Shown piece by piece: positions 31,101-60,099 of a DNA stretch of 64,000 nt. The notes below the pieces were generated by a model. The model had not been told where the DNA came from and did no database searches. It worked only from the letters and a program-made list of their open reading frames with translations. Each line of letters opens with the position of its first letter. The stretch's first letter is position 1. Source of the stretch: Amphiscolops sp. MND2022 (lineage: Eukaryota); NCBI GenBank assembly GCA_964187785.1, contig OZ076411.1, positions 37,386,001 to 37,450,000 on the forward strand. Direction: 5' to 3'. The position numbers and the translations under genes were made by a program.

Positions 31101-34100
31101 CAAACCAGTTTTCACACTTTTTTCCTTTTTCACTGTAATAACTGCAGGTTGGATGAATTGTTTATCAGGTATTTCCTTTACTCTTTCAATGTGGCCTTCT
31201 TTTAACAATCTGTCTACTTCAGCTTGCACTGCTTCTTGCAGTTGTATTGGTACACGTCTTCTTCTCTGTTGCATTGTCTTAGCGTTTTTTTTTTAAATAA
31301 ATTCTAGTTTTATTTCATGTTTGTTTTGTTTTCCTTGCCATGCAAAGCATTTTTTGTATGTAATTTTATTCTATTTTTATTTATTCCTTCCTTTATCGTT
31401 TATATTTAATTTTTTCACTTTTTTTACTTCACTTGGTTTGTTTAAGTTATTTGATTTTGTGATTCTTTTCGTTATTTTGTTAATAACTTTGTTACCTTCT
31501 TTCTGATTGGATGAGACGAATCAGTAGTTGAAGGAGTTCAACCAATCCCGTCCAATTAGTGATTTGGTTCTGTGTGGTGCTACCAAAATTCTTGCTTTTT
31601 GTAGCTTGCTGTTGCACACCTCTAATTGGCAGAATATATATCCCAGTAATTTCAACTTCTTTTTGTTGAAGTCAACGTATTCTTCGTCTTTGGGCAGTTG
31701 TCGAATGAATAATGTTTTGCGTTGCGTAAATCTTTTATTGTCTTCGATTTCGAATAAGGTGACCGGCGATCCGGAGTTCACCATCTTTTTGAATTGATTT
31801 TCGTTTATTTTCCCCGTCATTGTATATTGTCCATTTTCGTCGCCTTCTATAGACAGGACAATTTTGTCTTCTACTATTGAGTCATTGAATCATCTTTTCG
31901 TTGTATTCTTTGTGCGGGTGGTTCTATTACTTTTCTGCTTTTGGAGAAAGTTCCTGCTTGCTTTGTTTGACAGCACTTTGCAAAATGTCCTTTCTTTCCG
32001 CACTTTGTACAGATTATTCCCATCGGTTTGCATTTTTTAAGTGTTGGGGGCTTAATACAGCTGGGCATCGGAAACAGTTTCACGCCTAAGTTGACATTGT
32101 TCACTTCACTTGGTTCCTGTTTTATTTTTGGTTTATCCAACTTTTCGAATGATTGCTGCTTTATTGCTCCTTCTTCGTATGAGATGGCAAATTGAATTGT
32201 TTCTTGCACGGTTGTCTTCGACTCTGTACAAAGTTTTTGCTGCACATCTTTGTTAGCCATATTTACAATAAATACATCTTTTACCAGGCTTTCCGTTATC
32301 CCTCAAAAGTTGCCTTTTGGTGCTAGACCATTCAGTTCGTTCCAGAACTGTCTCATCGTTTCTCCTTTTTTCTTGCTTTCTGCCTAAAAACTTGAAACGG
32401 TCAAGGGTTTTGTTTTTGGTTTCTCAAAGCATTCTCTACATCTTGGTATCAACTCTCTCAACGTTATTCTTGCGATGTTTAAGGTGGGAAATATGTCGCT
32501 GATAGTTTTTCTTGCTGCCATTCCTTGGGCCAAATATAGGACAGTTATCGTTTTTTTCCGCGGCAGTCCTTTCCTCCATGTCTCCTAGGAGACGTTTTTC
32601 TTTCGTCTCCGTTCTTTTCGTTAATTCCGTTATTGATATGTTTTTTGGCCATTAATGCCACTTCGAATAAATCTATCCATTTCTCCCATTCTAATTCGGG
32701 AGGTTTTGCAGCATCCGACCAATAAAGTGGTAGACCTGCTATTGCTGATGACATGCTTCGAGTTGGTTCGACTCGCAGTGCCATGTTGTAGTATGAGGGT
32801 ACGATTACAGAGTTCAACTTATTTGAAGAACTGATGATTACTCGGTGTAAAACGAGAGGAAACAATACCGTATGGTATGAAGACTATGTGGCAAACTGTG
32901 GTGACGTTCAATCTAGTGGTTAATACTTTTACAGGAACTTGGTATTTTCCGCCCACAAAAATGGGGGAGGAATATCATGATCTGTGATGCGTTGTTTTAC
33001 AAATTTTGCCAAAACTCCACTTTATCTCCACTGGTTTATCCAACTTTTCGAATGATTGCTGCTTTATTGCTCCTTCTTCGTATGAGATGGCAAATTGAAT
33101 TGTTTCTTGCACGGTTGTCTTCGACTCTGTACAAAGTTTTTGCTGCACATCTTTGTTAGCCATATTTACACTAAATACATCTTTTACCAGTCTTTCCGTT
33201 ATCCCTCAAAAGTTGCATTTTGGTGCTAGACCATTCAGTTCGTTCCAGAACTGTCTCATCGTTTCTCCTTTTTTCTTGCTTTCTGCTTAAAAAGTTGAAA
33301 CGGTCAAGGGTTTTGTTTTTGGTTTCTCAAAGCATTCTCTACATCTTGGTATCAACTCTCTCAACGTTATTCTTGCGATGTTTAAGGTGGGAAATATGTC
33401 GCTGATAGTTTTTCTTGCTGCCATTCCTTGGGCCAAATATAGGACAGTTATCGTTTTTTTCCGCGGCAGTCCTTTCCTCCATGTCTCCTAGGAGACGTTT
33501 TTCTTTCGTCTCCGTTCTTTTCGTTAATTCCGTTATTGATATGTTTTTTGGCCATTAATGCCACTTCGAATAAATCTATCCATTTCTCCCATTCTAATTC
33601 GGGAGGTTTTGCAGCATCCGACCAATAAAGTGGTAGACCTGCTATTGCTGATGACATGCTTCGAGTTGGTTCGACTCGCAGTGCCATGTTGTAGTATGAG
33701 GGTACGATTACAGAGTTCAACTTATTTGAAGAACTGATGATTACTCGGTGTAAAACGAGAGGAAACAATACCGTATGGTATGAAGACTATGTGGCAAACT
33801 GTGGTGACGTTCAATCTAGTGGTTAATACTTTTACAGGAACTTGGTATTTTCCGCCCACAAAAATGGGGGAGGAATATCATGATCTGTGATGCGTTGTTT
33901 TACAAATTTTGCCAAAACTCCACTTTATCTCCACTGGTTTATCCAACTTTTCGAATGATTGCTGCTTTATTGCTCCTTCTTCGTATGAGATGGCAAATTG
34001 AATTGTTTCTTGCACGGTTGTCTTCGACTCTGTACAAAGTTTTTGCTGCACATCTTTGTTAGCCATATTTACACTAAATACATCTTTTACCAGTCTTTCC

Positions 34101-34589
34101 GTTATCCCTCAAAAGTTGCATTTTGGTGCTAGACCATTCAGTTCGTTCCAGAACTGTCTCATCGTTTCTCCTTTTTTCTTGCTTTCTGCCTAAAAACTTG
34201 AAACGGTCAAGGGTTTTGTTTTTGGTTTCTCAAAGCATTCTCTACATCTTGGTATCAACTCTCTCAACGTTATTCTTGCGATGTTTAAGGTGGGAAATAT
34301 GTCGCTGATAGTTTTTCTTGCTGCCATTCCTTGGGCCAAATATAGGACAGTTATCGTTTTTTTCCGCGGCAGTCCTTTCCTCCATGTCTCCTAGGAGACG
34401 TTTTTCTTTCGTCTCCGTTCTTTTCGTTAATTCCGTTATTGATATGTTTTTTGGCCATTAATGCCACTTCGAATAAATCTATCCATTTCTCCCATTCTAA
34501 TTCGGGAGGTTTTGCAGCATCCGACCAATAAAGTGGTAGACCTGCTATTGCTGATGACATGCTTCGAGTTGGTTCGACTCGCAGTGCCA
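28136..34589 (-). pseudogene. Disrupted gag-pol of the old gypsy element
   Basis: Many short minus-strand ORF fragments carry gag, zinc-knuckle, protease and RT motifs (e.g. 31026-31274, 31521-31820, 31874-32260, 32545-32865). They are separated by stops and frameshifts. Confidence 0.8.
30786..31020. repeat. Small insertion with repeated ggattccacga motifs inside the old gypsy pol region
   Basis: Four variants of (cc)ggattccac(g)ac within 30800-30925, interrupting pol-like sequence. Boundaries approximate. Confidence 0.4.
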
Positions 34590-34838
34590 TGTTGTAGTAT
34601 GAGGGTACGATTACAGAGTTCAACTTATTTGAAGAACTGATGATTACTCGGTGTAAAACGAGAGGAAACAATACCGTATGGTATGAAGACTATGTGGCAA
34701 ACTGTGGTGACGTTCAATCTAGTGGTTAATACTTTTACAGGAACTTGGTATTTTCCGCCCACAAAAATGTGGGAGGAAAATCATGATCTGCGATGCGTTG
34801 TTTTACAAATTTTGCCAAAACTCCACTTTATCTCCACT
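32129..34838. repeat. Tandem triplication, 3 x 903 bp (gag 5' part + PBS + partial 5' LTR + 5' end of inserted Helentron-like element)
   Basis: Units start at 32129, 33032 and 33935 (tggtttatccaac). Identical ORFs at 32545, 33448 and 34351. Only a few SNPs between units. Confidence 0.95.
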
Positions 34839-35014
34839 CCACTTCGTTACTTGACTAATTTACTAAAAACTTCATATTAGTCATGTAACTAAAATAGTGC
34901 CATGGCACAGTTGGTAGTACGTGTGCCTGTCAAGCATGAGGTCATGGGTTCGAACCCGGACTGAAGCGTTACATTTTTAGCGGGAAATATCCCGGTGCTT
35001 AGCGGGCTACTTGT
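34747..35014 (+). mobile_element. Family B Helentron-associated (HINE/DINE-1-like) non-autonomous element carrying a tRNA-like segment
   Basis: 5' stem-loop attttccgcccaca-aaaa-tgtgggaggaaaat; 3' inverted subterminal gcgggaaata; hairpin cccg..cggg; terminal CTTGT. Inserted between T|T (aactt|...|taaat) with no TSD. Absent from the sister LTR. Confidence 0.7.
34897..34967 (+). pseudogene. tRNA-Asp(GTC)-like sequence with A box and B box, acceptor stem unpaired
   Basis: TGGCACAGTTGG (A box), gtgc-ctGTCaa-gcat anticodon arm, GGTTCGAACCC (B box). The 5' and 3' ends do not pair. Confidence 0.6.
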
Positions 35015-35121
35015 TAAATAAATGTAAATATGTATTTCAATAATTGTACGAACGTTATCTGTCACTGAAATTTCAATTAAATGTTTCTAGAGGCTTGTGT
35101 TTATGATTGAGCCCTGTCACA

Positions 35122-39677: not shown

Positions 39678-40591
39678 AGTCATGTCATACTGGGGATATC
39701 TGGCGTCGGTAACCCGACTGCTGCAGCCGACCGGGATGACTGGCAATACCCAATTGACACTGGAGGATGCCGCATACTGGGGAACGTGACCGTTTGCAGC
39801 TTATGGAACTACTGGAAGCCACATTTGCGGGAAAAGAGAAGGCCCACAGACACAACTGACTTTAGCGCGAGCAGTCCCTTGTTCCTTTGCGTGAAGAACT
39901 TACAGAACTGATGGACCAGGTGGGCCGGTGTCCAGTCAGCCGCGAAGTGGAGCGAACTATTTCTCAAATTGGATTTGCCGCAAACATTGGACTACACCAG
40001 CTACCTTTGGAAGTGGGTGGTATGGTTGTCCGAGAGACCGTGGTCCGAGCAAAAAGGGCGCAGAACCGCTCTCTCTTATGATGGCTGGTATTCCACAATG
40101 CGCGAGGGCAGGATGAAGGACAATCCGCTGCATTAGTCATGTCATACTGGGGATATCTGGCGTCGGTAACCCGACTGCTGCAGCCGACCGGGATGACTGG
40201 CAATACCCAATTGACACTGGAGGATGCCGCATACTGGGGAACGTGACCGTTTGCAGCTTATGGAACTACTGGAAGCCACATTTGCGGGAAAAGAGAAGGC
40301 CCACAGACACAACTGACTTTAGCGCGAGCAGTCCCTTGTTCCTTTGCGTGAAGAACTTACAGAACTGATGGACCAGGTGGGCCGGTGTCCAGTCAGCCGC
40401 GAAGTGGAGCGAACTATTTCTCAAATTGGATTTGCCGCAAACATTGGACTACACCAGCTACCTTTGGAAGTGGGTGGTATGGTTGTCCGAGAGACCGTGG
40501 TCCGAGCAAAAAGGGCGCAGAACCGCTCTCTCTTATGATGGCTGGTATTCCACAATGCGCGAGGGCAGGATGAAGGACAATCCGCTGCATT
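39678..40591. repeat. Tandem duplication, 2 x 457 bp
   Basis: Units 39678-40134 and 40135-40591. Identical ORFs at 39887/40344 and 39928/40385. Confidence 0.95.
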
Positions 40592-43957: not shown

Positions 43958-45058
43958 TGTCATGCCCGCCAAGCATGAAGAAATGAAATAAACTCTAAAA
44001 CATTAGTTCTTACATCAAACTCCCTAAAATACAGATCATCATGTAAATACATTGCAGTAATTTATTAGCTAAATATCACAGTTGGCTATACGACGACTGA
44101 AACTAGCAGTCATCAATACCAAATTTCGTTTATGTTATGGTGCATCGTTTAAAAGCTAAAACTGAAATATTCAATCATTTCCATATTTACGACTGAAACA
44201 ATCAGTCATCATCCACAGTGATAGTGCATCGTTTAACCGTTCTTTATCCATTTTTTATATTACATGTAAAGTATTACCAGAATATTCAATCATTTCGTTC
44301 ATTCATATTAGCAATTTGTACAATGTCCTGCAGTAATTATCCTCCAAACGATAATCGAATCAGTCACCATGATGATAAGAACACGCGGTAGTGAAGCCTC
44401 AGTTTAAAGAGCAATTGAGACAATTAAGTGCTAAAATGACTGGTGCTTGCGGTCATACTAAATCAAACACGAACAATTAAACGCCGATCATCACCCGTCA
44501 TGACTGGAACCACCAGTCGTCAAGTGCAATTAAATAGTAATTAGCAAGTCGAATGTTATTGGCTGAAAGAGAAAAGGTGCTAACACACCTTGATAGTGAC
44601 ACGGTCGGGTAAAACCGAACTCATTAACGAATTGTGACCATTGATATAACCGGTTGCTTACTACCTTGCTTACCAGTCATCAATAGTTGTTATAACATTA
44701 AAATACTTCAATTCAACTTAAAACTTCAGACTTTTCATGGTAATCACCAGATCTCAAAGTAGTCGAAATAGACAGATTGATACTGAGAACATGGATAGAA
44801 CTAGTGATAATGAAAGTGAAACCAGCTTCCCTGAACTCTTGTCTAGAGAACAAATGGTAGACCTTGACTCTGATGACGTTTTAACTAGACGTCAAAATAG
44901 TAGTAATTACGACATTGACCGAAGATTTAACGAGATAAATAGGCAAATCGGAGACCTTACAAACATAGTCCTCACGCTAACCAACCAGTTTGCCTCCGTT
45001 AATGGAGAAGGGAATAGACTGAATCCAGTAACTACTAGTACTGACAGTCGTTCCGACA
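43958..45058 (+). repeat. 5' LTR (1101 bp)
   Basis: tgtcatgccc...gttccgaca, followed by PBS. Confidence 0.96.
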
Positions 45059-46275
45059 TGGTGACAGGAGTCTCGAATCCACGACCATCAGGATCCCGAA
45101 CAACACCACCCAACGGGACACCAAGGAGTGACGAAAGCATGCCGCAAATAGCAGATGTGATGACGGAAATCCACCATCTCCGAAGTACAATGGGGGAAAC
45201 CTTGACGCACCCAAAAATTCTGCAGACCCAAGTACCCCTATTCAAGGGAAACCGAGACAAATACAATGAATTCGAGCATTTATTGCTCAACCACTTACGA
45301 CCACATGCCCACAAACTAACCGAAGAACAAAAACTCAACTACTTCCAGAGTCTTCTCAGGGATGATGCAATTGAGTTTTGGCAAACCCTAACAATCACAA
45401 CAGAAACGACACTGAGAGATATACTGACGGCATTCAAAAAAGAATACGCAAAGGAAGAACTCTCAGAAGTCTCGAAGTTCAAATTCGACCAACTACGATA
45501 CGATCCAGCTACTGAGTCATTCAGTACCTTCCTCGCCAATTACAAAAAGATTGCCAAACAAGCCTATGGCGAAAAAGCACAGGAAATCGTCCAGACTTTC
45601 CTATTTGCCAAATTACCCATCCAGCTCCAAAACGAACTGGCAATTGCAGGAAAACACAATGCCAGCATTGAAGACATCAAAACATTCGTCCAGAGAAGAT
45701 GTCAATATGCCCAGTTACTACCAAACCAACAACTGCTCCAACCGTTCAATCAGGCTATTCAGACGCAAGAAGTCCCGAACAAGTCAGTCACCCAGAAACG
45801 AAATGAAACTGATCGACCAACAATCAAAAGGAAATTCGACGGCAACTGCAGATACTGTGCGATATACGGACACAAATGGGCAGAATGCCGAAAACGACAG
45901 CGAGACGAGGCAGCAGGTAACAACAACTCCCAGGCACAGAAAAAGCCCGAACAACAGAACAACAACCACGCAGAAACACAACCGAAATACAACGCCAAAC
46001 TGGTCTGCCAAATCTGCGGATATACAGGCCATTCTGCAAAAGACTGTAGGCATAGAATACCTCAAACCTCTGCCTACGGAAGTGTGCCCTACAACAGGCA
46101 AATCACAACTGAAAACAGGGATTTCCGACGTGACTTTAGAAGAGCACACAACAGCCCTTACCCAGCAAATGAAATGAATGACGTTGCACCAGGGGACCAA
46201 CAACAACAAATCAGTGATGAATACTACCAACAGGACTTCATTGAACCATCATCTAGCCAGCCAAAAAACTTCTAA
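44737..46275 (+). CDS. gag: Gag polyprotein (512 aa) with two CCHC zinc knuckles; starts inside the LTR
   Basis: Open ORF; capsid-like region (FEHLLLNHL..KLNYFQSLLRDDAIEFW); CRYCAIYGHKWAEC and CQICGYTGHSAKDC. Confidence 0.93.
   Translation: MVITRSQSSRNRQIDTENMDRTSDNESETSFPELLSREQMVDLDSDDVLTRRQNSSNYDIDRRFNEINRQIGDLTNIVLTLTNQFASVNGEGNRLNPVTTSTDSRSDMVTGVSNPRPSGSRTTPPNGTPRSDESMPQIADVMTEIHHLRSTMGETLTHPKILQTQVPLFKGNRDKYNEFEHLLLNHLRPHAHKLTEEQKLNYFQSLLRDDAIEFWQTLTITTETTLRDILTAFKKEYAKEELSEVSKFKFDQLRYDPATESFSTFLANYKKIAKQAYGEKAQEIVQTFLFAKLPIQLQNELAIAGKHNASIEDIKTFVQRRCQYAQLLPNQQLLQPFNQAIQTQEVPNKSVTQKRNETDRPTIKRKFDGNCRYCAIYGHKWAECRKRQRDEAAGNNNSQAQKKPEQQNNNHAETQPKYNAKLVCQICGYTGHSAKDCRHRIPQTSAYGSVPYNRQITTENRDFRRDFRRAHNSPYPANEMNDVAPGDQQQQISDEYYQQDFIEPSSSQPKNF
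45059..45071 (+). promoter_or_regulatory. Primer-binding site
   Basis: TGGTGACAGGAGT directly after the LTR-terminal CA; TGG is complementary to tRNA CCA. Primer tRNA not identified. Confidence 0.75.
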
Positions 46276-49200
46276 AGCCACGTCATTCGACCGACCACTA
46301 CAATAACAAAGTGCGCAACACAAACAACTACTACTACACAAAAAACTACAAAAAATGGACAACTGATCTTCGGCAGGATCAGAAACCCATGACTTCAATT
46401 ACCCACGAGACAACCAACAACGAAGCGAACTCCCCATCCGAACCAACGGATGTGAAATTACAACCGACAGAAGACGGACAGCACTCTAACTTGACTACGA
46501 CGACTGACTGTACAAAGAAAACAACAAACCGAAAGAAGGACGTGGCGATCCAGGTGTTAACAGCAACACTTCAGTTAAACAAAAAGGACAAGATGTTATA
46601 CGTCCCATTGCAATTCAGAGCATACGAAAACCATGGACTCCTCGACACGGGAGCAATAAGAAGTGCCATGTCAGAAGACGAACTCAGACGAATCCTGTCT
46701 GCACACCCAGCTGCACTCCTTGAGGAATACCCAGCACCGGACTTCAAAGTCCAAATTGCCAATGGGAGTATCGTCCCAGTCCGGAAACAGGTATTGCTCC
46801 GCTTTTTCATCGGTGGTAAAGTATTCGAGGAAACCTTTATGATTTTACCAACCATGGGCAACATCTTGATCGGAATGTCCTTCTTCAAGAAATACTCAGT
46901 GACGCTTGACCTTGCCAATAACGTAGTCAAATTCCCAGACATTACCCTGCAACTTAAACCAGAAAGAGGACGATACAAAGTCCAGATGCTCGAACTACGT
47001 ACATCGCAAAAAATAGTGGTACAACCGGATCACCAAATCATGGTCCCTGTCATAGCAGAAAAGGACCTCGGGACAATCCAGGGCACTGTAGAAACCTTTC
47101 CAGCCTTTGAAAGAAAGACCCAACTACTAGTGTCCCCCGCCTTAACACAAATCACTGAGATGAAAAGCCATGTCCAGATCACCAACCTTACCTGCCACAC
47201 AATCACCCTTAACCCGAACACAACGGTGGCCACATTCAGAATAATGACCCCCAACCAGGCAAAGAACCTACAACCGATGTCAAACGAACAATTGACACTG
47301 ATCACCAAATACCCAGACGAAGCTGATAATGTACTAAACCAGCTGTTCCAAGAGCCTGGCACCGAAACCAACCGTCGATGGTACCCAACACCGGAGACCT
47401 GTGACGACCCGTCCAAGTTGAACCGCATTGAAAGACGGATATACGACGAAATCACTAAACTCCGTGAAGAAGAAAAACTGGACCCAACAGCAGACGATAA
47501 ACAACGCCAGGAGTTCCTTGCCAGCTTCAAATGGGAAAACTCAATCCTGGATGAGCACGAACGACAACAGATTGAGAACCTCCTTGTGAAGTATAACAAT
47601 GTGTTCGCCAGACACCGCCTTGACATAGGCATCAATACCGATTTCAAAATTAAACTTACCCCGAAGCATGACGAGCCAGTTTACGCACAGAGTTTGCCCA
47701 CACCCACAAATCTCAAAGACGACCTGCTCGTCGAACTAGCGCTGATGCAAGAGTACGGGATAATCACGACGTTGCCATACAGCAAGTATTCCTCACCAAT
47801 ATTTGCTCAACGCAAACCCAATGGGAAACTTCGCATTCTTGTAGACCTGCGCAGAATCAACCACCTTTTGAAAAATGATTACAACCAACATAATCATCCA
47901 GTCACCACCATCGCCGACGCCGCCCAGCACATGGCAGGGAAGAAGTATTTCTGCAAGCTGGACTGTTCGCAGGCGTACCACTGTTTGCAGATGGCGGACG
48001 AACAATCCATACAACTCTTGGCATTTAATTTTGGAAGTCGAACCTTTGCTTATCTACGACTGGCACAAGGACTCAATCGATCCCTATCAGCATTCAACAG
48101 CACGGTGCGAGAATACGTCGACGCACTGGTGAAAGCGGATAAATGTGCCCAATATGTCGACGACATTGGGATTGCTGCCCACACTGTAGATGAGCTACTG
48201 TCAAACATTGAAGCTGTGTTCCAACAAATCCAAAAAGCAGGACTGAAATTGTCGATGTCAAAATGTGCGTTTGGCCACCCACAGATCGACTTCCTCGGAA
48301 GAAGCATCACATCAAAGGGTGTTGCCCCACTCGAAGACAAGATAGACAACTTCCTCAAGAAGATCAAATTGCCCACATCAGTCAAATCCCTCCAAAGGTA
48401 CATCGGGTTCGTCCAGTTCTACAGGCAGTACATACCACGCCTAGCAGAAAAACTCACCCCACTGTACAAACTACTTCAAAAAGACGTCAAATTCCAGCTG
48501 ACCCAGCAGCAAAAGGACATTATCTTCGAGATTAATGAAAACCTTGCCAAAGCCGCGAAACTTTCGCTGCGTCTGCCGTTACCCGATAAACAGCTTGTTA
48601 TAATGTGTGACGCCAGCGAGCATGCGGCAGGATATGTCCTCCTGATAGAAGACTACACCGAAACTAACGACGGACCAATGAAGACGTACGCACCAGTATC
48701 ATTTGGATCCCAACGATTCACGGAGGGCCAAATGTCACTTACTATGTATGCAAAAGAATTCCTGGCAATGCATTTTGCATTCGACGAATTTGCACACATA
48801 CTCTGGGGTGTCAAGAAACCAACAATCGTAATGACGGACAATAAAGCACTAACCCGTTTCTTCCAGTCCAAACGAATTCCACCGAAGCTATGGAATTACT
48901 GCGATCAGACGCTTCAATTTGAATTCGTACTTGCCCATGTTCCCGGAACCGAGAATCCTGCTGCAGACTACCTGTCTCGTCTAGACATACGACCGGAGGA
49001 GAGAATCCACCTCAAACTCAACGACGAGATACCAGTCTTCCACGTCGAGATCGATCTGGCGTCACGAACACCGAAGCAGGACGAAGAAGAAGAAGAATAC
49101 ATACCTGATGACCAACAAATCACCACCACCAAACAAAATGAAGCCATCAACGCCATACTGGACCAGGTCCCCATATGCAGTGACGAATCGAGTGGACAGT

Positions 49201-51068
49201 TTCGCGAGAGGATTGAAACCATCCGTCATCAGATCACACCCATCATCACAGGGCAGCATGACGAGATGACGTTCACCCGATTCAGGCGAAAGCTTCATGA
49301 CAACGTGGTAAACCAGGTATGCCCCAATGGGGAGTTTCAAATCATCCAGGACCAAGCCGTAAACCTTGACATCCAACGCATGATTAGAATTTTGAACCAA
49401 AAGGAAACCCTTCCTAATCATGTGAACTTTGAAAGTCAGTTTTTCCAAAAACTAGTTAAAAACAAGAAAAGACTTGAAGTAGTGAACAACGTTTTGTACA
49501 GGAACTTTTTCGATGGTACAGGTAAAATTAAGTGTAAACAAATTGTCACCCCCTCTGAAACCATTCGGAAAATCATTCAATCCCTGCATGATGACCCTCT
49601 GCAAGGTCACCCTGGCTGTAACAAAATGCTCCACGAACTGCGTAAAAGGTACTACTCACCAAACCTCTCTGAACTGGTACTGCAATACGTCTCGAACTGC
49701 CAGGACTGCATCCGCTCAAAACCAATCCGGAAAGCTGAAATCACACCACCACTCCAACAAATATACGACCCCTGCAACGGACCAGAAGACATACTAGAAA
49801 TCGATTTAGTCGGTGAACTCCCACCTTCCAACGGATTCACACACATCCTCACTGCATGCGACTACTTTTCTAGGTACCTCTTCGCAATACCAATCCGTAA
49901 ACCGGACACGAAGTCGGTCGTCGAAGCACTCATGCAAATCTTCACGCAGCACTCGTATGTACCCAAAACAATCTTAACTGACAAAGGAACGACATTCACA
50001 TCTCAACTACTCACCGCTCTGATGGAGTCTGCCGGTATAAAAATCGAACACGCCTCTGTAAAGCACGCACAAACGATTGGGATGGTTGAACGTTCACACC
50101 AAAAACTAAAACAAATTCTCAAAATCAACGTCTCAGCCGATTCACCACAATGGCACAAATACGTAAACATGGCCGTGATGGCCCATAACACAACCTACCA
50201 CCAGGCTATCCGATGCACACCCACTGAAGTTTTCCACGGACGCATTCCGTTCAATGCTCTTGACGTCAAATTTGGCCATCCATTAACTGAACAACGCAAC
50301 ACCACTGACGTCACTGGAATACTAGATAACATGAACAAAAAATTCCAACAAACACATGACAACATAATCGAAGCCTTCCACAAATACAAGAATTACTACG
50401 ACCGAAAAGCGCAAGCTTCACCTCTGAAAGTAAATGATTTCACCTTTCTGCTAAACAAAAGACTGTCTCAACAATCTGACAAAATTCCTTTCAAGGAATT
50501 CAAGTGGGAAGGCCCGTACAAAGTGGTAAAAGTCTTGTCCAATTCAAATTACATTATACGTAAGATTGGAACTCTTCGCACCCAATGCGTCCACAGAATG
50601 AGGCTCCGCCCATTTACACCAAACGCACCAATTGAAGACATTCAAGACGATACATCACAATACTATGAGGATCCTGACGCCCTCAACGAGCAGGAGTTGT
50701 TCGACAACCACCTACCCGATCACGTCCACGAACAACCACAACAAGCAATACCTGAACAATCGGACTTCGAAGAACTACATGCTGACCATGGAATGATATA
50801 CTATGAACGCCATAGCCTAGAACCTGATCAAAACATTTCCATACCTGAAAGCCGAGCTGAAACACAAGAACCACAACCGGATAATGTTAGCATGAACAAT
50901 TCCGAACGCCAAACAAACGACTGCCCTCCAGCGACATCGCGAAACACCATGTCTCGATACGGGCTCAGACACAACCCAAAACCTACCACGTACCCCGATT
51001 TCCTAATGCACGAATTACATGGAACGCCTTCGCTTCAACAGCTGCTTCTGAAAAACAGAAACCTATAA
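46257..51068 (+). CDS. pol: Pol polyprotein (protease, RT, RNase H, integrase), in the -1 frame relative to gag
   Basis: Frame open from 46257 (ORF track start 46311). Motifs: LLDTGA protease; KLDCSQAY..YVDD RT; CDAS..YAKEFLA..TDNKAL RNase H; HDDPLQGH..CQDC, IDLVG, TDKG, VERSHQ integrase; GPY motif. Confidence 0.96.
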   Translation, partial: PAKKLLKPRHSTDHYNNKVRNTNNYYYTKNYKKWTTDLRQDQKPMTSITHETTNNEANSPSEPTDVKLQPTEDGQHSNLTTTTDCTKKTTNRKKDVAIQVLTATLQLNKKDKMLYVPLQFRAYENHGLLDTGAIRSAMSEDELRRILSAHPAALLEEYPAPDFKVQIANGSIVPVRKQVLLRFFIGGKVFEETFMILPTMGNILIGMSFFKKYSVTLDLANNVVKFPDITLQLKPERGRYKVQMLELRTSQKIVVQPDHQIMVPVIAEKDLGTIQGTVETFPAFERKTQLLVSPALTQITEMKSHVQITNLTCHTITLNPNTTVATFRIMTPNQAKNLQPMSNEQLTLITKYPDEADNVLNQLFQEPGTETNRRWYPTPETCDDPSKLNRIERRIYDEITKLREEEKLDPTADDKQRQEFLASFKWENSILDEHERQQIENLLVKYNNVFARHRLDIGINTDFKIKLTPKHDEPVYAQSLPTPTNLKDDLLVELALMQEYGIITTLPYSKYSSPIFAQRKPNGKLRILVDLRRINHLLKNDYNQHNHPVTTIADAAQHMAGKKYFCKLDCSQAYHCLQMADEQSIQLLAFNFGSRTFAYLRLAQGLNRSLSAFNSTVREYVDALVKADKCAQYVDDIGIAAHTVDELLSNIEAVFQQIQKAGLKLSMSKCAFGHPQIDFLGRSITSKGVAPLEDKIDNFLKKIKLPTSVKSLQRYIGFVQFYRQYIPRLAEKLTPLYKLLQKDVKFQLTQQQKDIIFEINENLAKAAKLSLRLPLPDKQLVIMCDASEHAAGYVLLIEDYTETNDGPMKTYAPVSFGSQRFTEGQMSLTMYAKEFLAMHFAFDEFAHILWGVKKPTIVMTDNKALTRFFQSKRIPPKLWNYCDQTLQFEFVLAHVPGTENPAADYLSRLDIRPEERIHLKLNDEIPVFHVEIDLASRTPKQDEEEEEYIPDDQQITTTKQNEAINAILDQVPICSDESSGQFRERIETIRHQITPIITGQHDEMTFTRFRRKLHDNVVNQVCPNGEFQIIQDQAVNLDIQRMIRILNQKETLPNHVNFESQFFQKLVKNKKRLEVVNNVLYRNFFDGTGKIKCKQIVTPSETIRKIIQSLHDDPLQGHPGCNKMLHELRKRYYSPNLSELVLQYVSNCQDCIRSKPIRKAEITPPLQQIYDPCNGPEDILEIDLVGELPPSNGFTHILTACDYFSRYLFAIPIRKPDTKSVVEALMQIFTQHSYVPKTILTDKGTTFTSQLLTALMESAGIKIEHASVKHAQTIGMVERSHQKLKQILKINVSADSPQWHKYVNMAVMAHNTTYHQAIRCTPTEVFHGRIPFNALDVKFGHPLTEQRNTTDVTGILDNMNKKFQQTHDNIIEAFHKYKNYYDRKAQASPLKVNDFTFLLNKRLSQQSDKIPFKEFKWEGPYKVVKVLSNSNYIIRKIGTLRTQCVHRMRLRPFTPNAPIEDIQDDTSQYYEDPDALNEQELFDNHLPDHVHEQPQQAIPEQSDFEELHADHGMIYYERHSLEPDQNISIPESRAETQEPQPDNVSMNNSERQTNDCPPATSRNTMSRYGLRHNPKPTTYPDFLMHELHGTPSLQQLLLKNRNL
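46263..46269 (+). promoter_or_regulatory. -1 ribosomal frameshift slippery heptamer A_AAA_AAC
   Basis: Correctly phased X_XXY_YYZ in the gag frame, two codons before the gag TAA and inside the gag/pol overlap. Confidence 0.75.
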
Positions 51069-52951
51069 AAACACCCACCCATAATCACACTTATTAAACC
51101 AATGACTGCTAACAACAGTCACCAACAGCCTTTCTATCTGACCGTAAAGGTAATTGTTTTACAATTACACCCTAGTACACCAAGTATCCAGCAAACAATA
51201 GTGAAAGCTCTGAACAACCTAGCAAACACTTCAATAAACGACCGTTCACTTCCGTCGTCGCTGTGTAAACTATCTAATCTATCAGCACCAATTGTTAGCG
51301 AAACAACCAAATAGTAAAGTAACGACTGCACAAGCCTATCATTCCAACACTCGCGGTCCGGAAGTACATGTAACGCGCAAAAGTGTGAACGATAATTTAT
51401 TCAATTCGCACCAAATTTACTACATCCACAACCGGAACTAAAGCAATTTGCTTAGCAAAATCTTGATGCATAACTAACGAAACGTGAACGAAAACAACGT
51501 TCCCTACAAACGCAACAAACTAACAATGATGATCTGCTGCCTGGCAAACGCTAGGACAACATAACCAATACCCCACCTATCTCGCTTTAGACTCATAGTT
51601 CTGGCTGTGTGGGTGCGTCGTCAAAAGCGTGCTTGTGTGGTTGGTCATACATACAGATGAAGGTTGCTCTTTAGCAACTGGATTCAGTGTTAGTTTTGTA
51701 TAAGTGGTTCCGACGGGAATTCACCTTTCCCAATGAACTGAACATTTAAACTGAAAACTAATCACCAGAAACTAACAGAACGCCGGTACGAACAAGAACT
51801 TACCAACTCCCGAAAACAATGATCGCCCGGCCCCTTACACGTAACCTAGGATGCGAAGGCTTTGCCTCTTTAGGGAAAAGAGTAAGGAGTACGCGGCCCC
51901 AAAAAGCTACTTAACGAGGAAACCTAAACATGTCCATCCTTCCCAGCCTAACAACTTGGTACCACTGCAGTTAACATAACGTAAGAACTCGCGATCTTGA
52001 CGACACACATCACGTGTGATGACGTCCCAGGACACACATCAACGATGATGACGTCGCAAACATAGACCGCTGCATGTAATAAATCGAAACACCAACATAC
52101 ATGTAAAGTAGTCCCTAGAACTTATAACACGTAACACTTACATGCATACCTAATAAGTCATGTATCAAGCCAAGGATCCACCCCTTGGGAATTCAGCCTT
52201 GGAAATGAGCGAGCTGCTCAGTCACGTACCTCGCGGCGCGGTGCTAAGGACCGAAAGCCACAGTCATCCTGTCTCGTTACCATTCTCGAGCATTCACGAA
52301 CAACGAAGAGGAGGACTTGACTTTCGAGTACCATGCACAGCACAGCTTGGCGCGTGAACAATTTTTATGTCGGTGGTTACCGCGGTGACCACCATAACCA
52401 TCATGAACTTGCTGGAAAAATTCACTTAAGACGACGCAACAAATAGAGCGAAACACCGCATGAAACTATAGTCAAGGTATGGGTAACCCCATACAACCAC
52501 CCAAGAACGATAGAGGTAGTTTAGCATCATGGACACATAGATACTCCAAAAACACGCGAAGAAGAAACCGTTTAAAACAACCCTAGATTTCACGCACTAC
52601 AGAAAAACAAATCGTTCCTAGACTACATTACACCAACGAAGAAAAAATGACGAGTACATGCAGTCAGACTGAACACTACAACATGCAAAAATTCATTTTT
52701 TTTCCCTACATGCAACAAACCGCTAATAACGCCCTAACTGCCCAGTACTACAGAAAAACAGAGAAAAGTTTTGGACGGCAGAAACCATCTAACTAAATTA
52801 CTACATCATGTAAGACCAACTCAGGCCATAATAAAACACAGCATAACATCAAAACACAATATCAATATGTAATCAACATGTAAAAAGTTCTGCAAACAAA
52901 TTAACAAGCCAAGTAGCAAAATCTGATTACTGCGACAAACCTGGAAGATAA

Positions 52952-55900
52952 CTAATACTCTTTGGAACGACTACCATCTTCCTCATCACTGCTCTCCTCT
53001 AACGTGAAAGAACGCCCGCCAGCCGACTCAGGTTCAGTTTCAACAGTAGCTAATGTACGTTTTCCTTTCTTGCCTGGTTTCCCTCCCGTTCTCTGACCAC
53101 GATTGCTTCCAGACGTCTTACAGGCAGATTTACGTTTTGAAGCTGAAGTACTCGGGCCCTCTGTTGGTAACACGACTTCAGCCTGCAACTTAGGCGCTTG
53201 CGACACAGAAAGCCTTGCTCGCCCAGGACTCCGATGAAGAGCAATTGGGCTCGAATCCATTGTGCGCAACTGATCACACACTATAGACCTATAATTGTCG
53301 ACAACAGGACGAGCTGGGAGACCACCAGTCGATTCCAGAACACCCAGGCAGCGATCCAGTAGTTCATCAATACCCCTCTTGACCAGCTGGTCCCAGGGAA
53401 TAGCCCTTGCTACATCGGACAGACGAGAAACCTGCATGTCAGTATTATTGCAGTGCCTGACAAATCCAATCATAGAGCGGCGTGAATGCCCACTAAACCC
53501 ACTTGACATCCAGCTCCGAACTATGTGAAGACTGGACAACATGATGCCATCACTAAGAGCAGTGTTTCCCACATCCTGGAAATTGGCGACATATGGGTCA
53601 TGAAGCATCCCCACAAACAGAATCTCCATTATGCCCTGGAATTCCTGGCACCGGTCCCACGAAGGGTATGACAACCACAAGGACACGGCGTCGTCAATGA
53701 CCGGCACCCCCGAGACACTGGACTCCCAACGGCGCTGAAAATAGGTGACCACTTCCCGATATTGTTGAATGACGATGGCCCCCTGGTCTCCACTGCAAAG
53801 ATCACCGAAGCTTAACACCGAGAGCGTACCCACGAGTATGTCCGTCAATCGATCCATGGACATCAGCTGAATCGCATGAGGATCCAACGGCAATAAGCTC
53901 AGATGCTTCACCCACCCCTGATCATAGTCGCAGATGCACATTTCACAGATAGCCCTCAGGAAATTTTGTACTTCTTTGTAGAAGAACGACTTTTGACTGA
54001 CAACGTCGAACCGGAAGTACTGACCAAACAACACTTCAAATCGGGCTTTGTTCACTGGCTCACTCTCTCCCAGTCGCATCTTCAGTACGGCAAGTACCTC
54101 GAAATCGGGTGGTATTGTTGCAGACTCGACCACTAGAGACAATAACTCCCGAAGGAAAGCAGCCAGCTCACGCTCAAACCATAGGTTCCGATCCCGCCCA
54201 GCAGAACACAAACGGGGACACTTGGCAACAACTGAAACATACAGATGATCCCTGACCAACATGTTGAAACACTCAACAACACACCCTACCAGCCCGAACG
54301 TCCTAACTCCCTCACAATCCACTCATCAACCACATAGCAGAAAGGAAAAATAACCATAGAGTGGATGTACTCGGACACAGAAATAAGCACAGCATTTATA
54401 CTGACCTGTCTCAGCGAGAAACTTCAACACTGCGAACCGCGGCCTGGACATGGCATCACTGAAGACCTGCGTCTCCATACTTGCAATATTGCGGGTCTCA
54501 GAAACTGTCTGCGAACGGTGACCACCAAAGTATGCCCCGAGATCGTCCCACCGATCCACAATTTCCGTGCACAGAACTGCTAACTCCCGGAAACATGCAG
54601 CACCACCACGAACGAACTAAAACAAAACAGCATAAAATTATATACAGTGCATGACTAAAAGCCTCCACACCCAAGCGTACCAGTCATCACAAACGAGGAA
54701 AACACATACACACCAGACCAACCCACCCCCAACCAGAATGACTAAATACTGCTTGAATTACCTCTCGAAGTCTGGGCATATTGTCGAAGGATGACTCTCC
54801 GATGACTGCAGAAAGCCGGAACCGAAAATATTCCAAAACGCAGAAGGGTTCAAGTCCACTCAAGTGCTGCAGGAAAGTACGGCGAAGCAAGTCCCTCAAC
54901 CAGACCACATCCAGACGACGAGTCACTACAGGCATGATCGGATGTGCAATGCTCGCCAATGCCCGCCCAAGACGCAGATTCTCGCCTACGCTAATCGCAC
55001 ATAAACCAGCATGCGACTCCACACAAGCCAGAACGGAGACAAGAATCCTCAGCAGGGTTTGTTCCCACTCAGCGCCACCAGGAATCGCAACCAGAACCAC
55101 AACCTTGATAGTCACAGAGGCGAAGATGTGACAGTCCACACGCTTCAATGGCCCATCAGTGCGGACATGTAAGCCAAACCGCACCCCAGAAGAGAGAAGA
55201 TCACTGACTTTCTCGACAACGAACGGATAGAGACCGTATAACACGAGACTCTGCAACAAAACGAAAACCATGTCACTCACCACATAGTAAAGCATATTTT
55301 GTTCAAAATAAGACAAACCCATTATCCAACTACGTACAAACACCACGAGACACAGGCATACCAGTAGCAACTTCAAACAAAAAAAAAAAAGACAAAATGA
55401 TAAAAAAGGTATTACCTGACATTTCGGGTAAGATAGCGCCCTCTCAGCGAACACCAGCTCTCCCCGCATACTGCTGACCCATGACTCCATGGCTCGGACC
55501 ACACTTGGAAACGTTTGAAGCTCGACGAAATTGCTTATGAAACAACAGAGCCAGAGGTACGAAGCACTAGACTCCGATAACTCGGGCTTAGCTCCTGCAG
55601 CCTCCTCCTCGCGCTCTATCGCAATTCTCTCCTCCACTGTCAGTTTCACATCAGATTCTAGGATGACAGGCGGCTCTGATACTCTCGCGGCGCGAATCCT
55701 CCTATCCTCCTCCAAGGACACAGGCCTGCAGGACTTGTCCAACAAAGGCATATTGGACATGATCCGAAAACGCTGCTCAAGCCGGGTGTGCTCACGTCCC
55801 TTCCAATGGTCCCACAAGTTGTGCAGACCACGTCCGGCAATACTGAGATCGACGCGGCACAGACGACATCTTGCATAACCATCGACCACCCGTTTGTTCC

Positions 55901-57216
55901 GGGGGAAACCAACGAAGGTCCCCACTACCCCAGACACAAAAAACGAAGGCTTGAGAGTCTTAACAGCACGCTTCCGACCTGCTAAAACACACAACACCAC
56001 ATGTAAAACTTCAAAAAAAAAAAAAAAACCTGCGTTTGTCACCAACTATTAGTAGTATGTTGTATATAATTAGTCCTACCCTACCACTAAAACCCCCCAC
56101 ATGATCTTTTGAGAGTTCTTACCAGGCTTTGATGTGGAGGCAACAGCACACGATGTCCCCCCAGAAGGCACAACACTTCTCTCACCAAACTCAGAGGGAA
56201 CACCCGACTCTGATGGCGCACGACGATCTTCTCCACCAAAGAGGCTTCCGGCCACAGAACGTGGGAGAGATGGCACATCATCACTCCGGGAAGCAACGGG
56301 AGCGTGACGCAGATCTTGTATTGCCTCTTTCAGCTTACTTAAGAACTCCTCCACAGCAAGGGCACCCACTGTCCCCAGTTGGCCGAGGCGGGACTCTACT
56401 GCAGCTTTCACCCAATGCTGTATCTCTTTCTCCACACGACGGAACAATTCAGCGAATTGCCCCTCGACGACCTCAGCTCTGATGTTTGCATCTGCAAAGT
56501 TATCCACAACTCACAGAACTTACCTTGGACTCAATGCCTGAAGACCCCTATCATCAATTTATTATAGAACAGCAAACCACACACGGCGTGCAATTGGTAC
56601 TTTGGACAAAAGCCCCCCCCCCTACGAATAACCTAGATTATAATGCTAACAACAAATAACTGGGTAACAGCTAATAGCCTTTGATACCAGAAAAATGTGA
56701 ATAAACCTACCCATATGAGATGACAGAAAGGCATCTAGACGATGAAGGATGGACGCCGAATCTATTCCTGGACTCCCAACAGTCCCAGCAGCAACCGAAG
56801 CACGATACCGACGTAAACAGTCGGTCACGTCTGACATGTTGACATCGGCTACAAGAACGCAATACCCTTAGTTACAAGATTATGACCAAACACTCCCTAA
56901 CACTACAGGCACTATCTTGGGCAGACGACAAACTGATGATATTACCGCTTACTCACACTAAAAGCAAAATACGAGAGCCACACTTACCGAATTCCTGGGA
57001 CAAGACGACGTCCAATAAATCGCCCAAACCAGCAATGTTTAATGATGATACGCGAGTTGCAAACTGGCAACATTGACTTGTCTCCAACATAAGATCGGGC
57101 AAATTCAGCCCGCCTCCACCTAGCTCAGCCCCCTGCATGGCCATCTGATCTTCAACTTCAGTAACCATCTCCTCCAATTCGGGCCCGAACGACTGATTTG
57201 CCTCATCTTCCAACAT
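52952..57216 (-). CDS. Antisense 7-exon accessory gene, about 1111 aa; zinc finger plus catalytically degenerate hAT-type transposase fold
   Basis: Exons 57216-56988, 56848-56711, 56491-56123, 55981-55416, 55250-54762, 54616-54406, 54285-52952 total 3336 nt = 1112 codons with no internal stop. Donors GTAAGT, GTAGGT, GTAAGA, GTAATA, GTAATT, GTCAGT; all acceptors YAG; introns 120-219 nt. The last acceptor (54286) is the least certain. Confidence 0.8.
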
Positions 57217-58028
57217 GCTGGCCCACAATATAATTAAACTCCAACGTTCCAAGGGAATAATAACAGGCACACAGGACACGACTGCAAAAGCTCATTCTTC
57301 CATTTCTTGTTGTTATAGACTGATCACCTATCTCAATACACAATGGATACCCAACCTCCCTATCAAACAGTTTTACCCGCGTACCACTGGATATTCAAGG
57401 AACCATATTTTGGATCTACCTCCGTCAAATTTCAAATGCTATTCACACGAAGCAGAAAAAAAGCAGTCGTGGTTCCTCACCAAAAAAGCCTAGTATCCTT
57501 CCCCATTCCCTCTTCATAAAAGTACAATCAACACCCGACAAAATACCAGACTTCCTGGGAAAAACCCATAGATAGCAATATTGATATTATTGTGGAAGAA
57601 TGAGCCAAACCAACGGTTGCCAAACGAAGGTGAATGATTTCAAGTTTGAACAGGCTCAAATTCTCTCCAAATATAACAACAATACTCAACTGACTTTCAC
57701 TATGGTAACGCAACAAATCAATCAACTGCCGATGATCGATGAAAAGTTGCTTAAACAAACATTCCACTATATGCGCACCACACGGATGACGTGGCTGACC
57801 GACAGTTACTATAAATAAACTCCAACTTCCGACTGCATATTATTTGCCTGCCTCGACTTGGCCATTCACGCTTCCGAATAGCTCTCAACCGCTTCATTTG
57901 CAACCCACGCGTTTTCCATCTACCTTGCATTGCCACTTCAGCCGCTGTTCAATTCTCAACTTAACCACCTGCTACCACTCACCTCAGTCATTCACCTTTC
58001 CTACTACCCCTACAGCTCACTCTCTCTC

Positions 58029-58042
58029 AAAAAGGGGGGGAA
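58029..58042 (+). promoter_or_regulatory. Polypurine tract
   Basis: AAAAAGGGGGGGAA immediately before the 3' LTR. Confidence 0.9.
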
Positions 58043-59143
58043 TGTCATGCCCGCCAAGCATGAAGAAATGAAATAAACTCTAAAACATTAGTTCTTACAT
58101 CAAACTCCCTAAAATACAGATCATCATGTAAATACATTGCAGTAATTTATTAGCTAAATATCACAGTTGGCTATACGACGACTGAAACTAGCAGTCATCA
58201 ATACCAAATTTCGTTTATGTTATGGTGCATCGTTTAAAAGCTAAAACTGAAATATTCAATCATTTCCATATTTACGACTGAAACAATCAGTCATCATCCA
58301 CAGTGATAGTGCATCGTTTAACCGTTCTTTATCCATTTTTTATATTACATGTAAAGTATTACCAGAATATTCAATCATTTCGTTCATTCATATTAGCAAT
58401 TTGTACAATGTCCTGCAGTAATTATCCTCCAAACGATAATCGAATCAGTCACCATGATGATAAGAACACGCGGTAGTGAAGCCTCAGTTTAAAGAGCAAT
58501 TGAGACAATTAAGTGCTAAAATGACTGGTGCTTGCGGTCATACTAAATCAAACACGAACAATTAAACGCCGATCATCACCCGTCATGACTGGAACCACCA
58601 GTCGTCAAGTGCAATTAAATAGTAATTAGCAAGTCGAATGTTATTGGCTGAAAGAGAAAAGGTGCTAACACACCTTGATAGTGACACGGTCGGGTAAAAC
58701 CGAACTCATTAACGAATTGTGACCATTGATATAACCGGTTGCTTACTACCTTGCTTACCAGTCATCAATAGTTGTTATAACATTAAAATACTTCAATTCA
58801 ACTTAAAACTTCAGACTTTTCATGGTAATCACCAGATCTCAAAGTAGTCGAAATAGACAGATTGATACTGAGAACATGGATAGAACTAGTGATAATGAAA
58901 GTGAAACCAGCTTCCCTGAACTCTTGTCTAGAGAACAAATGGTAGACCTTGACTCTGATGACGTTTTAACTAGACGTCAAAATAGTAGTAATTACGACAT
59001 TGACCGAAGATTTAACGAGATAAATAGGCAAATCGGAGACCTTACAAACATAGTCCTCACGCTAACCAACCAGTTTGCCTCCGTTAATGGAGAAGGGAAT
59101 AGACTGAATCCAGTAACTACTAGTACTGACAGTCGTTCCGACA
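58043..59143 (+). repeat. 3' LTR (1101 bp)
   Basis: Copy of 43958-45058, followed by TSD gcatc. Confidence 0.96.
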
Positions 59144-60099
59144 GCATCCTAGAAGACGGGGCCTTTCTCAGGAACCGCATCCTGCGGAGGCAATATCGGA
59201 CTGGTTTCCGTGCTAGTTCCTCCCCATTGTTATCTGCAAGCGTCCGACGCTTGTCGTTACGATTAGTTACTTTTTTGTAAAAACTTCGATTTCAAATGAT
59301 GGTTGAGCAGTAGGACAATGATATTGCAACGGAGGGCAATTGAGTATCTTTTCGAACGCAGGTGCGAGTGAAACGTTCGAGCTAAGACTTCGATTGTTGA
59401 TTGAAAATTATTCAATGGAATTATAGTTTTTTATTCGGCGAGGTTTGTTCGTTTTTCACAGACTATATCGTGAATGTTCGAAAACGCAAAAGACAAAATT
59501 TTTAAAACAAGAATCGAAGTCCGACTTAGTATGAAACATCCGAGTTTCAAATTTAGAGAATCAGAAACTTCCAGTTAAACTTTCTTGTCAATAGCTTTTT
59601 TGAAAATATCATCGAATGTTCTTTTCAATGTACATTCCTGAAGTACTAGGCAGAGTACTAGGCAGAGTCCATAGTGAATTTCATTTAAATATCCAGTTCC
59701 TCATTAATGTAAATGTACCAGTGAAGACTCCAAGCCCGGAATAACAGAGACATGCTCCTCTTTTTTTCAATGCAAATTGAATATCAGGATACTCGAACCT
59801 CATTTTATTGTCCATGAGAACACCTGAACAATTTTCCAACTTGTTGCAGGTCAAAAGTTAGATTCGGACTGATGCAATTCAGAAAGGTCCTTAGTTCTGT
59901 TTCTTTTAGCAATTACACTCCGATCATTCTGGACTATTTGGAGGGAAACGTTTATCAAAATTTTTTATAGGAATAATTTTTATACCCAGCAAACAGGAAT
60001 GGCCCAATGTTCCAGCATCATAGTTGAAAATCATTCTTGTAGGTAAAGAACAGAAGTAATCTGTGTATATAACCTTGTGACACTTTAAACTTTCACTTT

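Follow-up and report, generated by a model that had tools for sequence, protein, structure and literature searches.

An intron-containing antisense gene in a Ty3/Gypsy element

The window analysed here, a stretch of 64,000 nucleotides (nt) from Amphiscolops sp. MND2022 (assembly GCA_964187785.1, contig OZ076411.1, positions 37,386,001 to 37,450,000), contains a Ty3/Gypsy retrotransposon at 43958-59143, with gag and pol on the plus strand and an accessory gene on the minus strand, between pol and the 3' long terminal repeat (LTR). All the features that define Ty3/Gypsy elements were present. Two identical LTRs of 1101 nt, with TG...CA ends, were found on the plus strand at 43958..45058 and at 58043..59143, the former directly preceded and the latter followed by the 5-bp target site duplication (TSD) GCATC, together with a primer-binding site (PBS) and a polypurine tract immediately upstream of the 3' LTR. 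The gag frame (44722..46275) and the pol frame (46257..51068) were both free of stops; gag gave Retrotrans_gag and zf-CCHC matches, both under the Pfam cut-off, and pol encoded protease, reverse transcriptase (RT), RNase H and integrase in the Ty3/Gypsy order. The gag frame begins within the LTR and encloses the PBS (44722-45080), so that the gag N terminus is repeated in the 3' LTR (open reading frame [ORF] 58807-59280). Among 95 scored copies of 1133 candidates, 18 had an open exon 7 frame at 100% (rounded) identity, and the subfamily is therefore young.

The accessory gene (57216-52952) comprised seven exons on the minus strand, giving 3279 nt in frame and a predicted protein of 1092 amino acids (aa). 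Exon 1 (56988..57216) starts at the first in-frame ATG and is acidic, and exons 2 (56711..56848) and 3 (56123..56491) have comparative splice-site support. Exon 4 (55416..55978) encodes a BED finger, with its core at 55788..55868 (C-x2-C-x16-H-x5-H), and the helices of a predicted N-terminal dimerisation region of the hAT type, and exon 5 (54762..55250) encodes an RNase H-like core (b1-b2-b3-a-b4-a-b5). Exon 6 (54406..54616) contains a helix with a conserved Trp (27/28 rows) and weakly matches the beginning of the hAT insertion domain. For its part, exon 7 (52952..54231) is helical, with a candidate hAT C-terminal domain, a basic patch (53080-53057), an acidic tail and the stop.

This model consists of predicted splicing supported by the comparison of up to 20 relatives, according to the copies testable at each site. 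The donor GT of introns 1 to 6 was kept in 16/16, 11/11, 15/16, 19/19, 20/20 and 18/18 copies, respectively, and the five acceptor counts were 11/11, 11/12, 19/19, 20/20 and 18/19. Intron 4 varied between 164 and 176 nt across 18 near-identical copies, the differences being non-multiples of three. The acceptor of exon 7 was placed at 54232/54231, with AG in 25/26 relatives; a candidate at 54286 was discarded, given that AG was present in 2/26 and a stop fell within the intervening 54 nt in 15/26. Thus, the peptide GCVVECFN, taken as a block of the protein in the initial annotation, lies in the intron upstream of the true acceptor. That annotation had assigned the protein to 52952..55981, which is real gene sequence but covers only exons 4 to 7; the peptides that it quoted were all found in minus-strand frames, and its basic nuclear localization-like and acidic tail patches were both present. 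Antisense introns of this kind would be able to persist because the packaged sense RNA would not splice them.

The accessory gene is confined to one Gypsy clade, which is highly amplified in the genome. In the trees of integrase and RT, all 23 rows with the accessory gene fell on one side of a 100/100 branch, opposite 10-11 sister Gypsy elements, and the gene was present in none of 11 sister elements (s_T02 was omitted from the integrase tree, L054 from that of exon 5, and L054 and L055 from that of exon 4; the RT tree was built by a quick method). Identity between subfamilies in exon 4 ranged from 90% down to 64%, and a second clade, approximately 25% identical, showed the same exon 4-7 layout, likewise antisense to pol. 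Thirty accessory-bearing places were compared (15-30 kb each, window included); in 24 of them pol lay on the strand opposite the gene, and in 6 the stretch contained no pol. Homologues at 25-35% identity found a best match of only 30-34% in the Amphiscolops genome, which points to relatives in other genomes.

The gene is kept by purifying selection, which acts most strongly on the BED finger. The median ratio of nonsynonymous to synonymous divergence (dN/dS) was 0.02 for the BED part (8 pairs) and 0.13-0.25 for most other exons, compared with 0.03-0.07 for gag, RT and integrase; pairs with saturated dS, most of them at depth, were excluded, and the pairs are not independent. In one copy (L039) the synonymous distance in the accessory gene was about 5-10 times that in pol, and two others (L038 and L031) switched partners between the pol and accessory trees, a pattern consistent with module exchange.

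Probable relationship to hAT transposases

The accessory protein is likely to descend, at a remote distance, from a hAT transposase. The exon 4 profile matched hAT BED fingers with hhalign E values of 2.2e-4 and 3e-4 and gave domain E values of 1.3e-3 or lower in 5 of 16 full hAT proteins. The BED signature CX2CXnHX3-5(H/C), in the form given in PMC7471704, was present, with the zinc ligands kept in 45/49, 51/54, 49/57 and 47/57 family rows. An AF2 model of exons 4-5 (pLDDT 79) showed an RNase H-like topology following the dimerisation helices. When this model was compared by Foldseek with 350,542 chains, Hermes entries occupied ranks 1, 3, 5, 7 and 9, the best match having an E value of 1.4e-3 over 385 columns; for 4d1q the root mean square deviation was 4.4 over 127. 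The four-exon profile yielded z values of 4.0-7.6 (40 block shuffles) against six hAT templates, and of 24 exon orders the true one came 1st in four templates and 2nd in the other two; the Gypsy pol control gave a z of 0.0 and rank 19. In blind block sliding, the hAT RTK helix spanned the junction of exons 4 and 5, strands b1-b3 fell in exon 5, and the helix that follows the RW motif fell in exon 6.

These results bear out the BED-like finger (even though it is under the cut-off in Pfam) and the collinear hAT-like block order of the initial annotation, and the AlphaFold and Foldseek check that it proposed returned Hermes first for exons 4-5. EIVDRW, which it had read as the RW motif, aligned instead with the helix after that motif. 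Its proposal of a class II transposase carried by a class I element gained support, as to both hAT ancestry and stable carriage, from profile, fold, exon order and selection.

Hermes was missing from the 50 listed rows of each of two VIA runs, and the 55-aa intron read-through of the model drew many helical matches. Taken alone, the match to the helical insertion domain and the C-terminal hAT domain was not significant, the score being reached in 17, 45 and 22 of 200 shuffles. A model of exon 7 (pLDDT 41, with 18 intronic residues included) gave no match in Foldseek; no longer homologues of exon 7 were found in a search for them. The ESM Atlas gave no usable match for the protein, a DUF4371 search found nothing in the genome and nothing in the controls, and a metagenome scan yielded 110 pattern matches, 0 of them confirmed. 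Prediction of an exon 4 homodimer (score 0.00) spoke neither for nor against a dimer.

As regards catalysis, the favoured position for the first Asp, on b1, is probably Arg in this copy (55163-55161) and is D/E in 1/59 rows, in agreement with the loss first claimed; a register two residues on, however, retains Asp here and D/E in 23/58 rows. The second-Asp site, after b4, is Gly in this copy (54986-54984), as claimed, but is acidic in 46/67 family rows (E in 33, D in 13). The reported lack of CxxH was borne out family-wide, with no conserved C or H in the columns after b5, and the ERxFS motif was absent from the protein, as stated. The catalytic Glu was found in 14/27 rows under one candidate register (105/500 shuffles) and in none under the other, neither being significant. 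The family has no invariant acidic triad, and in either register the second Asp and CxxH are gone from this copy, which makes catalysis unlikely; the protein is likely to be inactive, as judged from its residues. The description "catalytic residues removed" therefore fits this copy at the second Asp and CxxH but is too simple for its relatives, in which an acidic residue is common.

A search of the window for a pair of terminal inverted repeats (TIRs) that would flank the gene together with an 8-bp TSD, the finding named in the initial annotation as contrary to its reading, gave 0 candidates. A simple nested hAT insertion was discarded on this basis and by the conservation of position and introns in two clades with approximately 25% identity.

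The BED finger, the RNase H-like core and the block order are common to the accessory protein and hAT transposases (Hermes; the CGRTK/HVPTRWLS group P0202-P0217; the host copy L172/L174), and the spacing of five residues between the two His of the finger is the same. Unlike them, the accessory protein has about 50 extra residues after the BED finger and an N-terminal extension of about 245 aa, and it has no first Asp (favoured register), CxxH, RW or ERxFS motif; its gene has no TIR or 8-bp TSD and travels within a Gypsy element. The host hAT copies of the CGRTK group (L172, L174, L181 and L182) are degraded, two of them being identical over 1014 and 778 nt, and no TIR was identified in them. 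Altogether, the accessory gene is real and selected, and its product is probably hAT-derived and disarmed.

LTR palindromes and BED residues

Each LTR contains four copies of a 23-bp palindrome (class 1a), located 135-580 nt inside the LTR: at 44092..44114, 44188, 44435 and 44499 in the 5' LTR and at 58177..58199, 58273, 58520 and 58584 in the 3' LTR. A near-copy lies just past the pol stop (51101..51123), and others at 49208, 51237 and 52246. The core dyad gave 10 matches in the window versus 1.24 expected, every one inside the element, and the exact 23-bp palindrome was found at 238 sites genome-wide versus 3 for the control. Among the first 50 of the 238 sites, which were listed, pairs separated by about 14 kb were frequent; the arms were fixed and the 7-nt spacer took many forms, as would be the pattern for a protein site.

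Three groups of elements were compared. In all of them the outer dyad peaked at a spacing of 15 nt (9, 34 and 21 occurrences versus at most 4, 9 and 14 elsewhere), and the outer bases were also common, whereas the inner four bases differed. Across 20 LTR stretches the three resulting patterns were almost exclusive to their own group, with one cross match; per LTR, class 1a was present 3-5 times in 5/5, class 1b 0-4 times in 5/6 and class 2 2-8 times in 9/9. In parallel with the inner bases, the BED residues located 4-5 positions before the first zinc His were HN/QN, SS and TT in the three groups. By counting from that His, these correspond to S66/N67 of Hermes, which contact bases, the Hermes BED finger binding a quasi-palindrome 2:1 (PMC10368747). 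One element (L038) has an integrase of group b (100/99), yet a QN finger and class-1a sites. Class-1a sites occurred once in 217 kb around host hATs and 0 times in the window outside the element. None of the three patterns was found in 7 sister LTRs, which is weak evidence because these LTRs are short (331-504 nt). Family-specific candidate motifs are thus clustered in the non-coding DNA of the element, as in the VANC and TnpA systems. Of the four roles suggested in the initial annotation, LTR regulation gained evidence from these palindromes, and none emerged for integration targeting or for interference with host hATs.

Additional observations were made in the genome. Six pol-less places of 20-30 kb carry the accessory gene (L128-L129, L033/L189, L034/L190, L130-L131/L193, L115-L116 and L191/L035). 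The first is arranged as LTR-gene-LTR with 98% repeats, and L033/L189 and L130-L193 contain 24-31 class-1a sites, partly in tandem arrays, which recalls the amplification of VANC targets. Outside recognised elements, six class-1a-like sites lie in a tandem array of short period (L185-L186, joined positions 16741-17307). Two sister Gypsy elements have a different antisense ORF in the accessory slot (L203:9009-9905, plus strand; L212:1284-2354, minus strand), possibly a captured chromatin dioxygenase: one of them shows a JmjC domain over the Pfam cut-off (E 6e-7) with an HxD motif, and the other HxE and a later His by eye, with no match to Pfam JmjC. Past pol and ahead of the 3' LTR, sister elements L203, L212, L214, L216 and L222 contain sense ORFs of 640-890 aa that matched nothing in Pfam, and a 642-aa ORF with a weak BRCT match, near a pol-less relative (L189:2609-4534, minus strand), is probably another transposon. 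The window also contains a 472-nt perfect inverted repeat (2310-3474), a 903-nt tandem array (32129-35121) and a 457-nt duplication (39678-40434).

Proposed function and its alternatives

On balance, we lean towards the accessory protein being a dead hAT descendant that binds the LTR palindromes as a family-specific regulator, most likely an activator or anti-silencer. Transcription of the antisense gene would start at the element's 3' end, the transcript would be spliced, and the gene product would enter the nucleus, where two BED fingers, as a dimer, would bind the 23-bp palindromes in the element's own LTRs. By analogy with the VANC and TnpA systems, the bound protein would then promote LTR transcription or protect it. 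Binding of the palindromes as a dimer seems reasonably probable, while a positive rather than repressive effect on LTR transcription is a tentative suggestion, on the doubtful side.

Several results weigh against this reading. No curated family exceeded the cut-off for the protein (zf-BED E 0.12; best relative 5.5e-4), and PDB sequence-profile searches gave no match. The Hermes E value in Foldseek falls short of 1e-3, with other RNase H-like proteins close behind, and without exon 4 the template z values drop to 1.2-5.4 versus 2.1 for the control. Exons 6 and 7 alone gave no significant hAT match, which makes "full-length", as the protein was first described, less certain. The palindrome patterns are post hoc, derived from the same LTRs in which they were counted, and the covariation of inner bases with BED residues comes from three related groups. 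Since LTR and gene lie side by side, linkage alone could account for L038. Three group-b LTRs (L050, L054 and L055) have 5-6 outer dyads and 0 strict class-1b sites, L131 has class-1a sites but a GI finger interrupted by a stop, and stretch S078 has 7 class-1a matches, 6 of them in a tandem array. Finally, the present sequence data show no direction of any effect on LTR transcription.

The same sequence evidence would be expected if the hAT-derived LTR binder were a repressor or insulator, either to control copy number or to modulate its own antisense promoter within the 3' LTR. Palindromes also lie past pol and 3' of the accessory gene, and retroviral antisense proteins are cited as regulators (PMC11963269). 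We nevertheless consider this unlikely: the VANC anti-silencers (PMC5735166) and TnpA (10.64898/2026.08.24.746577) are characterised by family-specific target motifs whose divergence follows that of the protein, and the clade with the gene is highly amplified. Slightly less likely still is a role in the replication cycle, in which the protein would hold the LTR cDNA ends, much as a transposase scaffold does with transposon ends, or act as a nuclear import factor or integration tether, with the palindromes as loading sites. The location of the palindromes away from the LTR tips, the ordinary integrase and 5-bp TSD of the element and the production of the antisense product apart from Gag-Pol all argue against such a role, even if hAT BED fingers build the transpososome via subterminal repeats (PMC10368747), the tail of the protein is basic and the acidic residue at the b4 end is retained in most rows.

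It is also improbable that the palindromes are host-factor sites, with the BED protein binding elsewhere (host promoters or hAT ends) and the covariation reflecting ancestry plus linkage. A single factor would not be expected to shift the inner bases between subfamilies of one genome, and class-1a sites are as scarce near host hATs and in the rest of the window as described above; in favour of this explanation are the comparison of just three groups, the looser sites in L050, L054 and L055, and the exception of L131. Least probable is that the protein is not hAT as a whole but a BED finger fused to unrelated RNase H-like and helical domains, for instance taken from a ZBED-like host protein or another DDE protein, since order and spacing are collinear with six hAT templates, Hermes came first in Foldseek and the block matches run across a splice junction.

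The regulator proposed here has parallels in several known systems. In plant Tat/Retand Gypsy elements (Grande gene23, RIRE2, TRP28/PF04195), an antisense gene likewise lies between pol and the 3' LTR in most copies, and its products are nuclear or predicted to bind DNA (PMC7264820, PMC11963269); the plant ORFs have no known origin or target motif and, as stated in the review literature, resemble no other transposable element. Unlike them, the accessory gene has six introns, a traceable class II origin and no PF04195 match. VANC (VANDAL) and TnpA (Spm) are element-encoded accessory proteins that have diverged together with their family-specific target motifs (PMC5735166; 10.64898/2026.08.24.746577), as proposed for the accessory protein, and TnpA derives from a transposase (10.64898/2026.08.24.746577). 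Both are class II proteins that regulate class II elements in plants, and the likeness proposed is one of analogy. ZBED1/DREF combines a BED finger with a hAT body, has palindromic targets and requires self-association for binding (PMC7471704), but it is encoded by host genes, whereas the accessory gene is multicopy and retrotransposon-borne. The plant mobile domain (PMD-A) encoded by Gypsy elements and the ORF3 captures of bdelloid LTR elements are accessory domains common to several element classes, not derived from transposases, and no cognate LTR motif is described for them in the available portions (PMC5418596, PMC5408684).

Transposase-derived regulators are thus known in hosts (PMC7471704) and in class II elements (10.64898/2026.08.24.746577; 0 occurrences of "retrotransposon" in its available portion), and Gypsy antisense accessory genes are also known, their origin and targets being open questions (PMC7264820). 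A literature search at the level of listings, which did not reach supplements, Repbase-type annotations or subscription journals, brought up no hAT-derived gene in any LTR element. For a Gypsy antisense gene, an origin in class II and a cognate site in the LTR are both proposed here, and both can be checked with short oligonucleotides. It is quite possible, though we stop just short of calling it probable, that this Gypsy lineage captured and disarmed a hAT transposase that is now its own transcription factor or anti-silencer, with LTR operators co-evolving with two residues of the BED recognition helix, in an animal-type genome. If so, the route from transposase to transcription factor (10.64898/2026.08.24.746577) would extend across element classes, a VANC-like system would be suggested outside plants, and three natural BED/site pairs would be available for reading BED specificity. 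A class I element would then have domesticated a class II enzyme and built from it a self-contained regulatory circuit.
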